NCBI GenBank assembly: GCA_035471785.1
Contig: DATIPQ010000017.1
Location: 79,115 to 143,114 of the forward strand
DNA from: Acidobacteriota bacterium
GTDB lineage: Bacteria; Acidobacteriota; UBA6911; RPQK01; DATIPO01
DNA length: 64,000 nt
Direction of reading: 5' to 3'
Notes under the pieces: generated by a model
Told to the model about the DNA's origin: nothing
Databases searched by the model: none
The model's input: only the letters and a program-made list of their open reading frames with translations
Made by a program: the position numbers and the translations under genes
Part shown: piece by piece, positions 11,627-16,717 of the stretch
How the letters are laid out: each line of letters opens with the position of its first letter
Numbering within the stretch: the stretch's first letter is position 1

Positions 11627-12430
11627 CTACCGCTGGGGCGGTTTGGTGGTGAAGTCGGCGGTGGCCGTTCCGCCGTCGGTAACGGTCACTTCCTGGCTTT
11701 GCGTTCCGAACACCTCGTGCCACAGTTCCACCGTGTAGGTTCCGGCGGGAAGTCCTGCGATCTCATAGCTCCCGTCGGCTCCGGTGACGGCGAAGTAGGG
11801 ATGTTCGAAGACCTGGACCCAGGCCTTCATCCAGGGGTGGACATCGCATTTGACCTCGAAGGGGGCTTCAGGCCTGGAGAAGGTCTTGTCCGTTTCGGTG
11901 ACCGAGGCCGGCATGGGCACGTTGAACTCGCGGTTGACGTTGGGCAAAGCGTGCACGTTGTGCAGGATGCCGTCCGAATTATGGAAGCGCAGCGTCTGGT
12001 TGGCCATCAGGCCCACTACGCGGGGCACGTACTTGCATCCCTTCTGGTCGATGATGACGGGATCGGAAGGAGTGGCGTGGCTGCCCTCGGGAAGTCCGCC
12101 GGTCACGCGCACGATGGCATTGGCCAAAGTCTTTCCTTCGCCCAGCATCAGCATTTCGTTCATGGGCGGGGTCTCGTGCATCTCTTGGCACTTGGGGTCG
12201 GCTTCCATGCTCAGAGGACGCGGCGTGGGCGCGGTGCCCTCGAACACGACGGTCCCCGAAATCTTGGCAGTGCCGCTGGGCGCGGTCTGGGCCGTGCCGG
12301 AGGCCTCGTCCCCGCCTCCGCCGGCCGAGTCGCCTTCTTCGCCGCCTCCGCCCCCGCCTCCGCAGGCGGCGGCGAAAACCACCAACGTCAGCATCATCAT
12401 CAAGGCCAGTAATCCTCTCAATCTGCTCAT
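11627..12430 (-). CDS. Lipoprotein carrying an amicyanin/plastocyanin-like type-1 copper (cupredoxin) domain.
   Basis: Reverse ATG at 12428-12430 (MSRLRGLLALMMMLTLVVFAAAC). Lipobox FAAAC followed by a Gly-rich linker. Cupredoxin signatures: the upstream His ligand context RFHNSDGILHNVH and the C-terminal ligand loop KCDVHPWMKAWVQV (C-x2-H-x2-M, as in amicyanin CTPHPFM). Carboxypeptidase-regulatory-like strands (ISGTVVFEG ... GSYEIAGLPAGTYTVELW) flank the cupredoxin. The track ORF extends to 12556. Confidence 0.55.
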   Translation of the reverse strand: MSRLRGLLALMMMLTLVVFAAACGGGGGGGEEGDSAGGGGDEASGTAQTAPSGTAKISGTVVFEGTAPTPRPLSMEADPKCQEMHETPPMNEMLMLGEGKTLANAIVRVTGGLPEGSHATPSDPVIIDQKGCKYVPRVVGLMANQTLRFHNSDGILHNVHALPNVNREFNVPMPASVTETDKTFSRPEAPFEVKCDVHPWMKAWVQVFEHPYFAVTGADGSYEIAGLPAGTYTVELWHEVFGTQSQEVTVTDGGTATADFTTKPPQR

Positions 12431-12614
12431 GAAATCAATCCCTCCATTCAAAATCCAATTATCGCCCGCAGGGGACGCCGAATCGCTCTTCATTGCGATC
12501 CCGAATCGGGAACTCCCCGCAACGCCCCCGCTTCTTACGTGGGTCGGCAAGTGCATCGGATTGTATCCCGCAGCCCCTACAGGGTCAAGAATCCCCTATT
12601 TTTGGGACAGCCTG

Positions 12615-12643
12615 TTGGAAAGGTGCGGCGCTGCTGCTATACT
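12615..12643 (+). promoter_or_regulatory. Sigma-70-type promoter candidate for the cytochrome oxidase operon.
   Basis: TTGGAA (12615-12620), a 17-nt spacer, then TATACT (12638-12643), about 70 nt upstream of the coxA ATG. Confidence 0.4.
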
Positions 12644-12713
12644 GCGTCCCGTCGCGCGCCGGTTCGACGGCGAGCGGGACTAAAACGCAACCGTCAAGGG
12701 GGGATCTTTGCCT

Positions 12714-14513
12714 ATGGGGGGCAACCACGACCATACCAGGACCGACCATCCCGAGGAATTCGACCACCCGGAAGAGCATGGGCACCATGAGCATCACGAA
12801 CTGGGCTTTTGGCGCAAGTACGTCTTCTCGGTCGATCACAAGGTCATCGGAATCCAGTACTCCATCACCGCTTTGTTGTTCCTGTTTTTCGGCTTCTGCC
12901 TGATGATGATCATGCGCTGGCAGCTGGCCTTTCCCGAGCAGCCGCTGCCCTTTCTGGGAGCCCTGCTGGGAGACGGGATGCCGGGCGGGGTCATGCTGCC
13001 CGACTTCTACAACGAGTTGGGGGCCATGCATGGCACCATCATGGTCTTCCTGGGCGTCGTCCCGCTGGCGGTCGGCGGATTCGGCAATTTCGTGGTGCCC
13101 CTGCAGATCGGGGCCCCCGACATGGCCTTCCCCCGCCTCAACATGTTCAGCTACCACGTCTACTGGATCGGCGGCGTGGTCATGCTGGCCAGCTTCTTCC
13201 TTCCCGGAGGAGCCGCCAACTCGGGCTGGACGGCCTATCCGCCGCTCTCGGTCATCGCCACCATCGGACAGACCTTCTGGCTGCTGGGAATGGTCTTCCT
13301 CATCACCTCTTCGCTCTTCGGAGCCATCAACTTCATCACCACCATCATTCAACTGCGGGCTCCCGGGCTCAGCTTCATGCGTCTGCCTTTCTTCGTCTGG
13401 GCCCAATTCGTTACGGCCTTCCTGCTGCTGCTGGCTTTCCCGCCGCTGGAAGGGGCCGCCATCCTGCAGTTGATGGACCGTCTGGCCGATACCAGCTTCT
13501 TCATGCCTTCGGGCCTGGTGGTGAGCGGACAGGTGCTGGAGCTGAGCGGCGGCGGCAGCCCCATTCTGTGGCAGCATCTGTTCTGGTTCCTGGCCCACCC
13601 CGAGGTTTACGTCCTCATTCTTCCGGCCATGGGAATCGTGTCCGAGATCATCGCCAACAACACGCGCAAGCCCCTGTGGGGCTACAAGTCGCTGGTCTAC
13701 GCGCTCGTCTTCCTGGGATTCATGAGCTTCATCGTGTGGGCCCACCACATGTTCATCACTGGGATGGGAACGGCCATGGCCGCCTTCTTCCAGACCACGA
13801 CCATGATCATCTCTATCCCCTCGGTGATCATTTTGACGGCCCTGCTCTTATCGCTGTGGGGGGCGTCGATCCGCTTCAACACCCCCATGCTCTTCGCCCT
13901 GGCCTTCTTGCCCATGTTCGGCATCGGCGGACTGACCGGACTGCCTTTGGGACTGACGGCGACCGACATTCCGCTGCACGATACCTACTACGTCATCGGG
14001 CACTTCCACTATGTGGTGGCGCCCGGCACCATCTTCGCCCTCATGGCGGGGGTCTACTACTGGTTCCCCAAAGCCACCGGACGCCGCATGAACGAGTTCT
14101 TGGGCAAGCTTCACTTTTGGCCCTCGCTGATCTTCATGAACGGAATCTTCTTCCCCATGCTCATCCAGGGGATGGCGGGCGTTTCCAGGCGTCTTTACGA
14201 CGGCGGCGCCATTTACGACTTCGCCCAGGACACGCTCTACCTCAACCAGGTCATGTCTTACTCGGCCTGGGGACTGGGACTTGTCCAGATCCCCTTTATT
14301 TTCAACTTCTTCTGGAGCATCTGGAAAGGCGCCAAGGTGGGACGCAACCCCTGGCAAGCCACCACCTTGGAATGGCTGGCTCCCTCGCCGCCGCCTCACG
14401 GCAACTTCGAGACCGTGCCTGAGGTCTACCGCGGGCCCTATGAGTACAACGTCCCCGGATCGGGCGACGACGGCTACATTCCCCAGTACAAGTCCAAGGG
14501 AGGTGGAGAATGA
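12714..14513 (+). CDS. ctaD: Cytochrome c oxidase subunit I.
   Basis: Heme-copper oxidase subunit I. Conserved His ligands and 12 TM helices are evident (WFFGHPEVY-like LFWFLAHPEVYVLILPAMG, HHMF, HFHYV). The ATG at 12714 follows AAGGGGGGAT. The track uses TTG at 12708. Confidence 0.9.
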   Translation: MGGNHDHTRTDHPEEFDHPEEHGHHEHHELGFWRKYVFSVDHKVIGIQYSITALLFLFFGFCLMMIMRWQLAFPEQPLPFLGALLGDGMPGGVMLPDFYNELGAMHGTIMVFLGVVPLAVGGFGNFVVPLQIGAPDMAFPRLNMFSYHVYWIGGVVMLASFFLPGGAANSGWTAYPPLSVIATIGQTFWLLGMVFLITSSLFGAINFITTIIQLRAPGLSFMRLPFFVWAQFVTAFLLLLAFPPLEGAAILQLMDRLADTSFFMPSGLVVSGQVLELSGGGSPILWQHLFWFLAHPEVYVLILPAMGIVSEIIANNTRKPLWGYKSLVYALVFLGFMSFIVWAHHMFITGMGTAMAAFFQTTTMIISIPSVIILTALLLSLWGASIRFNTPMLFALAFLPMFGIGGLTGLPLGLTATDIPLHDTYYVIGHFHYVVAPGTIFALMAGVYYWFPKATGRRMNEFLGKLHFWPSLIFMNGIFFPMLIQGMAGVSRRLYDGGAIYDFAQDTLYLNQVMSYSAWGLGLVQIPFIFNFFWSIWKGAKVGRNPWQATTLEWLAPSPPPHGNFETVPEVYRGPYEYNVPGSGDDGYIPQYKSKGGGE

Positions 14514-15118
14514 GCAGCGAGATTCCCTACACGGTCGACGTCCGGCCCGATACCGGACTCAACAACGTCAAGATCGGCATCTGGCTCTTTCTGGCCTCTG
14601 AAGTGATGCTCTTCGGGTCCTTCTTCGCCTCCTACATCCTTCTGCGCGTGGGCGCGGCGCCGGGGACCTGGCCGGAAGGAGCGTCGATACTCAACGTGCC
14701 TCTGGCCTTCGTCAACACGGTGGTGCTCATCACCTCCTCGGTGACCATGGTCATGGCCTGGGCTTCGCTCAAGCGCAAGGACCTGGGCAAATACAAGCTC
14801 TACATGGGCCTGACCATCCTCTGCGGCGTCATCTTCATGGTCATCAAGGCCGTCGAATACAATTCCAAGTTCGCCCACGATCCGCCTTTGCTGCCCAGTT
14901 CAAGCACCTTCCTGGCCATCTACTTCACCATGACCGGGCTGCACGCCCTTCACGTGGTGGGAGGAAGCGTGGTCAACGCCTACCTTTGGGGACCGGGGGC
15001 CAAGCTGTGGAAAACCGATCCCGAGATGTTCACCAACCGGGTGGAGGCTGCCGGGCTCTTCTGGCACCTGGTCGACCTCATTTGGATCTTCTTGTTCCCC
15101 GTTCTCTATCTGCTCTAG
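14510..15118 (+). CDS. ctaE: Cytochrome c oxidase subunit III.
   Basis: The first four bases overlap the coxA stop (ATGA at 14510). Short five-helix subunit III-type protein (IGIWLFLASEVMLFGSFFASY, HVVGG, WHLVDLIWIFLFP). Confidence 0.85.
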   Translation: MSSEIPYTVDVRPDTGLNNVKIGIWLFLASEVMLFGSFFASYILLRVGAAPGTWPEGASILNVPLAFVNTVVLITSSVTMVMAWASLKRKDLGKYKLYMGLTILCGVIFMVIKAVEYNSKFAHDPPLLPSSSTFLAIYFTMTGLHALHVVGGSVVNAYLWGPGAKLWKTDPEMFTNRVEAAGLFWHLVDLIWIFLFPVLYLL

Positions 15119-15131
15119 GAGGGAGTTCTTC

Positions 15132-15443
15132 ATGGCCCATGAGATGAGTGAAGAGGAAATCAGAAAACACGTCCGCGTCTACTTGTTCGTCTTCGGCGCC
15201 CTGCTGGCGCTGACGGTCATCACGGTGGCCGCTTCTTACCTGCATCACGTGGTGCCGATGTCGGTTTCCATCGTCATCGCGCTCTTCATCGCCATCATCA
15301 AGGGATCGCTGGTGGCCTGCTACTTCATGCACCTGATCGACGAGCGCAAGATGATCTATTGGACGCTCATCCTGACGGCGGTTTTCTTTGTCGGGCTGCT
15401 GCTGCTGCCCTTCTTTTCGAAGCTTGATCAAGTGCAGACTTGA
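15132..15443 (+). CDS. Cytochrome c oxidase subunit IV (prokaryotic CoxD/CtaF type).
   Basis: 103 aa with three TM helices. The MAHEMSEEEIRKHVRVYLFVFGALLALTVITVAASY pattern matches bacterial caa3/aa3 subunit IV. Confidence 0.65.
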   Translation: MAHEMSEEEIRKHVRVYLFVFGALLALTVITVAASYLHHVVPMSVSIVIALFIAIIKGSLVACYFMHLIDERKMIYWTLILTAVFFVGLLLLPFFSKLDQVQT

Positions 15444-15464
15444 GCCGTCGTCTAAAATGGACTT

Positions 15465-15659
15465 ATGTCGTTAAAAGGATTTCACATCGTATTCATCGTT
15501 CTGTCCTCGGCCATGGCCTTCGTCGTGGGGCTGTGGGCGCTGCAACAGGACGGTGGCGGGTACACGGCTCTGGCAGTCCTCTCGCTGGCCATGGGAGCGG
15601 GACTGGTGGGCTATGGCCTGTGGTTTTTGAGAAAACTCAAGCACGTGAGCACGCTATGA
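15465..15659 (+). CDS. Small two-TM membrane protein inside the oxidase operon.
   Basis: 64 aa with two hydrophobic helices. Stop TGA at 15657-15659 overlaps the next ATG at 15656 (ATGA), consistent with translational coupling inside the cox operon. Confidence 0.4.
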   Translation: MSLKGFHIVFIVLSSAMAFVVGLWALQQDGGGYTALAVLSLAMGAGLVGYGLWFLRKLKHVSTL

Positions 15660-15904
15660 GAAGAATCGCCAAAGTACTTGCAAGAGGCTTGGCCTTGTGC
15701 CTGCTGCTGCAGTTTTGGGCCTCGGACGCCTGGGCCTGCGAGGTCTGTTACGGCAAGGCCGAGTCGCCCATCATCGACGGCATGAACATGTCGGTTCTCT
15801 TTATGCTGGCCACCACCTATGTCCTCATCGTGGGTATGGCCGGAGGGTTCTTCGTGCTGCGCCGCAAGGCGCTGGCCAAGAAGCGCTGCGAGGAGGGATC
15901 GTAG
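15656..15904 (+). CDS. Small signal-peptide protein with an ACEVCYGK (CxxC) motif and a C-terminal TM anchor.
   Basis: ATG at 15656, in frame within track ORF 15440..15904. MRRIAKVLARGLALCLLLQFWASDAWACEVCYGK, then an Ile/Met-rich TM helix (VLFMLATTYVLIVGMAGGFFVL) and a basic tail. Located between coxD and coxB. Confidence 0.4.
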   Translation: MRRIAKVLARGLALCLLLQFWASDAWACEVCYGKAESPIIDGMNMSVLFMLATTYVLIVGMAGGFFVLRRKALAKKRCEEGS

Positions 15905-15907
15905 AAC

Positions 15908-16717
15908 ATGGAACGGTTTCTGGGACTACCTGAACAGGCTTCGGCTCACGCCGGACAAATCGACTACATGATGGGGCTGGTGCACATCCTCATGCTGCTG
16001 CTCTTCGTAGGATGGGGATTCTATTTCCTCTACGTCCTCTACCGTTTCCGCGCCTCCAGGCAGCCGACTGCCGACGCCACCGGAGTCAAGGGCAAGGCTT
16101 CCAGCTACGTGGAAGCCGCGGTAGCCATCGCCGAGGCCGTTCTGCTGATCGGGTTCTCCATGCCACTGTGGGCCGAGCGGGTCAACGAGTTCCCCTCCGA
16201 GGAAGAGGCCGTGGTGGCCCGCGTCGTTGGTGAGCAGTTCGCCTGGAACGTCCACTACCCGGGAGCGGACGGCGTCTTCGGACGCACCGACATCAACCTC
16301 ATCGACGTGGAAACCAACCCACTGGGGCTGGACACCAGCGATCCCTATGCCAAGGACGACATCACGACTCTTAATCAGCTCCATCTGCCCGTCGACAAGC
16401 CGGCTCTCATCTACCTTTCCAGCAAAGACGTGATCCACAGCTTCAACCTGCCTCACCATCGCGTCAAGCAGGACGCCATTCCGGGGCTCAGCATTCCGGT
16501 CTGGTTCGTCCCCACCGTGACCAACGCCGAAATGGCCCAGCGCACGGGGAAAGACGGTTTCACTTACGAGATCGCCTGCGCCCAACTGTGCGGACTGGGC
16601 CATTACCGCATGCGCGGCTTCCTGACCGTGGAGAGCGAAGAAGAGTTCGAAGCCTGGCTCAAGCAGCGGGCCGAGCAAGCCGCGCCTGCGTCGGGCGACG
16701 ACTTCTGGAACCAGTAA
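15908..16717 (+). CDS. ctaC: Cytochrome c oxidase subunit II with a CuA cupredoxin domain and no fused cytochrome c domain.
   Basis: Two N-terminal TM helices. CuA ligands: DVIHSFNLP (His) and YEIACAQLCGLGHYRMRG (C-x3-C-x3-H-x2-M). The protein ends shortly after the CuA domain, with no CxxCH motif. Confidence 0.85.
   Translation: MERFLGLPEQASAHAGQIDYMMGLVHILMLLLFVGWGFYFLYVLYRFRASRQPTADATGVKGKASSYVEAAVAIAEAVLLIGFSMPLWAERVNEFPSEEEAVVARVVGEQFAWNVHYPGADGVFGRTDINLIDVETNPLGLDTSDPYAKDDITTLNQLHLPVDKPALIYLSSKDVIHSFNLPHHRVKQDAIPGLSIPVWFVPTVTNAEMAQRTGKDGFTYEIACAQLCGLGHYRMRGFLTVESEEEFEAWLKQRAEQAAPASGDDFWNQ

Follow-up and report, generated by a model that had tools for sequence, protein, structure and literature searches.

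Type-1 copper proteins are known to replace cytochrome c as electron donors at the CuA centre of terminal oxidases, as do plastocyanin (cyanobacterial aa3), sulfocyanin (archaeal SoxM), halocyanin and rusticyanin/AcoP (Acidithiobacillus rus operon), and in A. ferrooxidans the cupredoxin genes share one operon with coxBACD. To our knowledge, blue copper reductants of haem-copper oxidases are known only from cyanobacteria, some archaea and acidophilic iron oxidisers and, for alternative complex III (ACIII), from Chloroflexi. These oxidase donors belong to other lineages and other cupredoxin subfamilies than the lipoprotein analysed here, and none of them carries the insertion into a transthyretin-like (TTR-like) domain that we describe below. 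The rus operon, whose AcoP protein is treated in PMC4059628, also encodes c-type cytochromes, whereas the cupredoxin-cox unit described here has none.

Amicyanin from Paracoccus denitrificans and P. versutus (1aac, 1mda) is a soluble, single-domain protein that partners methylamine dehydrogenase. Unlike amicyanin, the protein encoded in our window (the whole 64-kb stretch of DNA analysed) has its cupredoxin inserted in a TTR-like sandwich, with an extra Cys/His loop, a lipid anchor and cox/act neighbours instead of mau. The closest functional precedent for electron transfer from ACIII to a cupredoxin is auracyanin of Chloroflexus and Roseiflexus, a membrane-tethered blue copper protein fed by ACIII (PMC8552683 and PMC10873879). 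Auracyanin receives its electrons from ActE, delivers them mainly to the photosynthetic reaction centre and has no TTR-like domain; the gene clusters related to our locus, in contrast, are without ActE and have aa3-type oxidase genes downstream.

In Rhodothermus marinus, whose caa3 oxidase is used with ActE, and in Flavobacterium johnsoniae, which has an ACIII-aa3 supercomplex, genes for an A-type oxidase come after those for ACIII (PMC8552683). The system described here would share with them a tethered one-electron module at the ACIII-oxidase interface. In R. marinus and F. johnsoniae, however, that module is a c-type haem (in ActE, in the cytochrome c domain of CoxB, or as the sixth haem of ActA), whereas here actE is missing, CoxB has no cytochrome c domain, and the gene position in between is taken by a copper protein. 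The order of the oxidase genes (I-III-IV-x-y-II) and a subunit I without the K-channel lysine set the present system further apart.

A lipoprotein with a cupredoxin inside a transthyretin-like domain

The lipoprotein gene and the parts of its product are arranged as follows:

11627..12430, minus strand: gene for a 267-aa lipoprotein, cupredoxin inside a transthyretin-like (CarboxypepD_reg) domain (ORF and AF2 model)
12362..12430, minus strand: signal peptide with a lipobox-like A-A-A-C23 end (FAAAC23GGG), read from the sequence
12275..12361, minus strand: flexible tether rich in Gly/Glu/Ser/Ala, residues 24-52 (low pLDDT)
12068..12274, minus strand: N-terminal part of the TTR-like sandwich, strands 55-63 and 106-111 (secondary structure, invariant columns and chimera test)
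11807..12067, minus strand: cupredoxin domain, residues 122-208
11630..11806, minus strand: C-terminal part of the TTR-like sandwich, residues 209-267, with invariant His210, His238 and Glu239
11960..11962, minus strand: His157, predicted type-1 copper ligand
11846..11848, minus strand: Cys195, predicted type-1 copper ligand
11837..11839, minus strand: His198, predicted type-1 copper ligand
11828..11830, minus strand: Met201, predicted type-1 copper ligand

The start at 12430 was favoured over a longer ORF from 12556 because homologues of 264-280 aa share it. Tether sequence and length differ among homologues, and mean pLDDT in this part of the AF2 model is only 50-53 at residues 21-40 and 73 at residues 41-50. 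The motif [LVA][AVST][AGS]-C-G-G is common to homologues at the lipobox position; in some of them a plain signal peptide takes the place of the lipobox.

Over the whole protein the AF2 model reaches a pLDDT of 89.8 and adopts two recognisable folds. One is the seven-strand sandwich of the CarboxypepD_reg/transthyretin-like family (PF13620), whose Pfam model is matched over its full length; here the model superposes on the TTR domain of carboxypeptidase D. A loop of about 40 aa in the N-terminal part of this sandwich bears invariant Cys81 and His85 (ADPxCxxxH). The other is a Greek-key beta-sandwich of the cupredoxin type, which superposes on amicyanin at 2.0-2.4 Å.

The residues expected to hold copper lie in two motifs, HNVH (157-160) and KCDVHPWM (194-201). 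In a phmmer alignment His157, Cys195, His198 and Met201 correspond residue for residue to amicyanin His53, Cys92, His95 and Met98, with the amicyanin-type spacing Cys195-x2-His198-x2-Met201. All four are invariant in 44 aligned homologues (47-73% identity to the window protein), as is the complete K-C-D-V-H-P-W-M loop. Given the close superposition on amicyanin, it seems likely that the four predicted ligands converge on one site in the modelled structure. Invariant Cys132 aligns with amicyanin Met28. Together with Cys81, His85, His210, His238 and Glu239 it makes up six more invariant residues, which could mark a second metal site or another activity.

The initial annotation had read this protein as a tethered lipoprotein with a type-1 copper ligand set, its cupredoxin placed between N- and C-terminal CarboxypepD_reg strands. 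Each element of that reading was borne out: the ORFs of the locus all lie where they had been mapped, the signal peptide ends in AAAC23 ahead of a Gly/Glu/Ser-rich linker of low pLDDT, and the modelled cupredoxin is inserted into the CarboxypepD_reg sandwich. The profile search that had been suggested gave a different result. No Pfam cupredoxin family (Copper-bind or Cupredoxin_1) matched the lipoprotein at E ≤ 0.01, and the NCBIfam amicyanin model TIGR02657 scored well below its cut-off (17.2 against 110.2 bits). The best Foldseek matches include the cupredoxin domains of NirK-type enzymes.

Two other identities were rejected. A role with methylamine dehydrogenase (MADH) is contradicted by the sub-threshold amicyanin score and by the neighbourhood: around the gene lie cox, act, Rieske/cytochrome b, ctaA and ctaB genes, and neither the window nor the inspected loci showed any mau gene. 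For a PCuAC or Sco chaperone, neither the lipoprotein nor the small protein sm2 (below) gave a Pfam or NCBIfam match at E ≤ 0.01. The family itself is large: more than 6,379 homologues and more than 6,000 sequence clusters are annotated only as ‘plastocyanin’ (JGI) or ‘carboxypeptidase regulatory-like domain-containing protein’ (NCBI).

The oxidase operon

Transcribed away from the lipoprotein gene, at a distance of 277 bp, is an oxidase operon with the order coxA-coxC-coxD-sm1-sm2-coxB (subunits I-III-IV-x-y-II):

12431..12707, no strand: divergent intergenic region with back-to-back promoter-like sites (consensus scan)
12708..14513, plus strand: coxA, subunit I of an A1-type haem-copper oxidase (PF00115, E = 3e-132; alignment to P. 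denitrificans 1ar1_A)
14510..15118, plus strand: coxC, subunit III of the short five-helix type (PF00510; NCBIfam aa3 CtaE/CyoC-like)
15132..15443, plus strand: coxD, prokaryotic subunit IV (PF03626, TIGR02229)
15465..15659, plus strand: sm1, conserved 64-aa protein with two TM helices, present between coxD and coxB in most related loci
15656..15904, plus strand: sm2, conserved 82-aa protein with an N-terminal hydrophobic segment, a periplasmic C-x-x-C-[FY]-G motif, a TM helix and a basic tail
15908..16717, plus strand: coxB, subunit II with CuA and without a cytochrome c domain (PF00116; alignment to 1ar1_B)

The promoter scan of the intergenic region gave five sites against 1.2 expected, all of them consensus matches only. 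They include TTGACC-17-TACAAT on the minus strand (12588 to 12560) and TTGGAA-17-TATACT with an upstream TG on the plus strand (12615..12643).

Aligned to P. denitrificans subunit I, CoxA presents the motifs APDMAF (136), HPEVY (297), HHM (346), HDTYY (424) and HFHY (432), and it keeps the haem and CuB histidines, the cross-linked Tyr (in HPEVY), the helix-VI Glu and the D-channel Asp. In an ungapped stretch, Ile375 (13830..13832) aligns with the K-channel lysine (K354 in P. denitrificans, K362 in R. sphaeroides). This position is I, V or L in all clade members (at least 60% identity), and the lysine is present in paralogues and loci at 53% identity or less, with the exception of L158, which has Met. 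CoxA also contains a 12-aa insertion at residues 268-279 (13509..13544). Both CoxA (582.5 against 670.75 bits) and CoxB (121.4 against 147.7 bits) fall below their NCBIfam equivalog cut-offs. Judged by sequence, the window oxidase belongs to a divergent clade of the A-family (A1) aa3 type. In several related loci ctaA/ctaB adjoin the operon, which would be supportive of haem A in the oxidase.

Haem-copper NO reductases (eNOR, sNOR, gNOR and nNOR) have lost the cross-linked Tyr or have altered CuB/FeB ligands (PMC11214002). A reading of our oxidase as an NO reductase was therefore rejected, as the HPEVY Tyr and all three CuB histidines are intact. Nor is the His-rich N-terminus of CoxA a special feature, since Paracoccus subunit I has a similar HGHGDHH stretch. 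The SAM methyltransferase gene just 3′ of coxB was likewise dismissed as an operon member, since L081, the closest relative, is the one other locus that keeps it.

CoxB residues His177, Cys224, Cys228, His232 and Met235 align with the Paracoccus CuA ligands, and the electron-entry tryptophan is kept as Trp113. Gln226 (16583..16585) stands in place of the canonical Glu in the loop C-A-Q-L-C, as it does across the clade. CxxCH is absent from CoxB, which is thus not a caa3-type subunit with a fused cytochrome c, and a scan of all ORFs of 40 aa or more between 11001 and 17700, and of all likely genes across the 64-kb window, turned up no copy of the motif. The claims made earlier for this operon, namely a non-canonical gene order, a CoxB with a complete CuA site but no fused cytochrome c, and the lack of CxxCH motifs nearby, all stand, with Gln226 in the CuA loop as a small correction.

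Of the two small genes, sm1 gave no family match (Pfam, NCBIfam); sm2 gave no Pfam match, and its homologues are all named ‘hypothetical’. The sm2 motif, CEVCYG in the window, is kept as CxxC[FY]G in most of 53 loci inspected, with a few variants (for example CFS/CFN), and in Holophagales/Multivorans loci sm1 and sm2 are fused. On this comparison, sm1 and sm2 are real conserved genes.

Gene order in related loci

The survey of oxidase loci proposed in the initial annotation was carried out on 80 genome loci holding 94 copies of the cupredoxin gene, with neighbours identified by targeted tblastn. The loci span Acidobacteriota, Omnitrophota, Planctomycetales, Rhodothermales, Verrucomicrobiia, Marinimicrobia/Fidelibacterota, Binatia, Spirochaetia and others, and the pairing with the oxidase is conserved across these many phyla. 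Sixty-one of the 94 copies lie directly upstream of, and on the same strand as, a coxA of the clade; 60 of these were classed as co-directional, with a median gap of 72 bp, and in L045 coxA overlaps the end of the gene. Another 15 are second copies that share the locus, with the clade coxA 1.3-4.3 kb away. Overall, 76 of 85 informative copies share a locus with a clade coxA no more than about 4.3 kb away, eight copies have none inside flanks of 1.8-10 kb, and L082 is an orphan copy. The divergent layout first noted is true of the window but is confined to its lineage (the window, L081 and L001, with L081 as the closest relative to keep the pairing in this form); the common state is a co-directional gene immediately before coxA.

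In the reverse test, where loci were chosen by CoxA, the cupredoxin gene was found upstream in 19 of 38 loci without the K-channel lysine (K-less loci) that had at least 1 kb of upstream sequence. In other lineages a family member also precedes a canonical coxB-coxA oxidase, as in L025, L064 and seven of 16 K-containing loci. The association is thus frequent but not obligatory. A cytochrome c gene was considered as a positional substitute in some K-less loci; this was discarded, as the upstream genes are those of a cbb3 operon (ccoN-ccoO-cytochrome c). Loci L016, L019, L028 and L029 contain a caa3 operon as well.

On the other side of the cupredoxin gene, complex-III genes are found. In 40 of 62 cupredoxin-cox units actC-actD-actF lie directly upstream, encoding ActC (NrfD), ActD (PF11821) and an ActC-like ActF and leaving no room for actE; in four of the 62 units the upstream genes are instead Rieske, cytochrome b and multihaem c. 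ActA and ActB are encoded divergently upstream in at least six loci. No actE is present in the ACIII clusters of the related loci, no CxxCH occurs in 35 of 36 spans from actC to coxB (about 8 kb each), and the 64-kb window itself contains no act genes. ActE is dispensable in F. johnsoniae, and ACIII clusters have been reported that are without ActE ‘without any substitution’ (PMC8552683).

Possible roles of the lipoprotein

The lipoprotein is, in our view, probably a type-1 copper protein that carries electrons from complex III to CuA in CoxB and so stands in for a c-type cytochrome. A membrane-tethered cupredoxin had been proposed as the donor from the window alone. That proposal is now strongly and independently backed by conserved gene order across many phyla, and also by the position between complex-III and oxidase genes in units without CxxCH; the pairing is not universal, and it is from sequence comparison that we infer the donor role. 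Lipid-anchored at the periplasmic face of the inner membrane, with a flexible linker of about 30 residues as its tether, the protein would bind copper and be reduced by the complex that oxidises quinol in the cell. For most relatives this electron source would be an ACIII without the monohaem subunit ActE; for some it would be a Rieske/cytochrome b complex that has a multihaem cytochrome c. Whether a stable subunit or a mobile shuttle, the carrier would then hand its electrons to CuA, as a fused cytochrome c domain does in caa3 oxidases and as ActE or a soluble cytochrome c does in other respiratory chains. The presumed acceptor would be a proton-pumping A1-type O2 reductase made up of subunits I, III and IV, two small membrane proteins and subunit II.

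Other explanations were weighed against this. A copper chaperone or assembly factor would bind Cu(I)/Cu(II) briefly and give it to CuA or CuB, like PCuAC, Sco or CupA, perhaps with the sm2 CxxC protein in the same delivery line. Cox operons often hold assembly genes, ctaA/ctaB adjoin the cupredoxin gene in L057, L058 and several metagenome loci, and the extra invariant Cys/His residues and conserved sm2 motif fit copper handling. We nevertheless judge this improbable: the ligand set and loop spacing (C-x2-H-x2-M, as in amicyanin) are those of electron-transfer type-1 sites rather than of PCuAC, Sco or CupA, the first two of which also gave no Pfam or NCBIfam match. Moreover, the unit encodes no other periplasmic carrier between its complex-III and complex-IV genes, where this gene is placed, and paralogue duplication beside the operon is more typical of carriers than of chaperones.

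The close linkage of most informative copies to a clade coxA, in co-directional genes with tight gaps, also makes it unlikely that the lipoprotein is a general periplasmic carrier or redox enzyme whose main partner lies elsewhere (nitrite, N2O or metal redox enzymes, or a rusticyanin-like external feed) and whose adjacency to the oxidase is loose co-regulation. The pairing recurs with two oxidase clades and two complex-III types, and the neighbours examined included no nir, nos or mau gene. What speaks for such a carrier are the orphan copies with unrelated neighbours (L004, L038, L050, L053 and L082), the half of K-less oxidase loci without the upstream gene, the NirK-type domains among the top Foldseek matches, and the invariant His/Glu residues that could build a second site. 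Very improbable, in our view, is a structural, non-redox subunit, a cupredoxin/TTR scaffold with an incidental or vestigial copper site that steadies a supercomplex of ACIII and oxidase. CuA could receive its electrons straight from ActA (PMC8552683), which fits such a subunit and is a counterpoint to the donor role, but the invariance of the four ligands and their loop in 44 homologues argues for a functional metal site.

A literature search of limited reach, in which absence is not proof of novelty, returned no account of the cupredoxin/TTR protein or its link to ACIII or cox, and none of an A-family clade without the K-channel lysine. Were the lipoprotein the electron donor to CuA, a copper-based link between complexes III and IV would be a common feature of Acidobacteriota, Planctomycetota, Verrucomicrobiota, Marinimicrobia and further bacteria that abound in soils and oceans, and the protein would be a candidate replacement for ActE in ACIII clusters that are without it. 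This bears on how the respiratory potential of uncultured bacteria, and their iron and copper demands, are annotated. The oxidases without the lysine also define a testable clade with a bearing on proton uptake by A-type oxidases.

A more far-reaching idea, which we offer tentatively and with more doubt than conviction, is that ActE-less ACIII (or Rieske/b), the cupredoxin-in-TTR lipoprotein and the K-less aa3 oxidase form one dedicated supercomplex in many uncultured phyla, a respiratory branch free of haem c after ActA. In it the TTR-like domain would dock the copper protein as a stoichiometric subunit, sm1 and sm2 might be further subunits, and subunit I would deliver protons without the canonical lysine. 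As for the TTR-like domain with Cys81, His85, Cys132, His210, His238 and Glu239, our guess is that it serves in docking or forms a disulfide-stapled cap beside the copper site.

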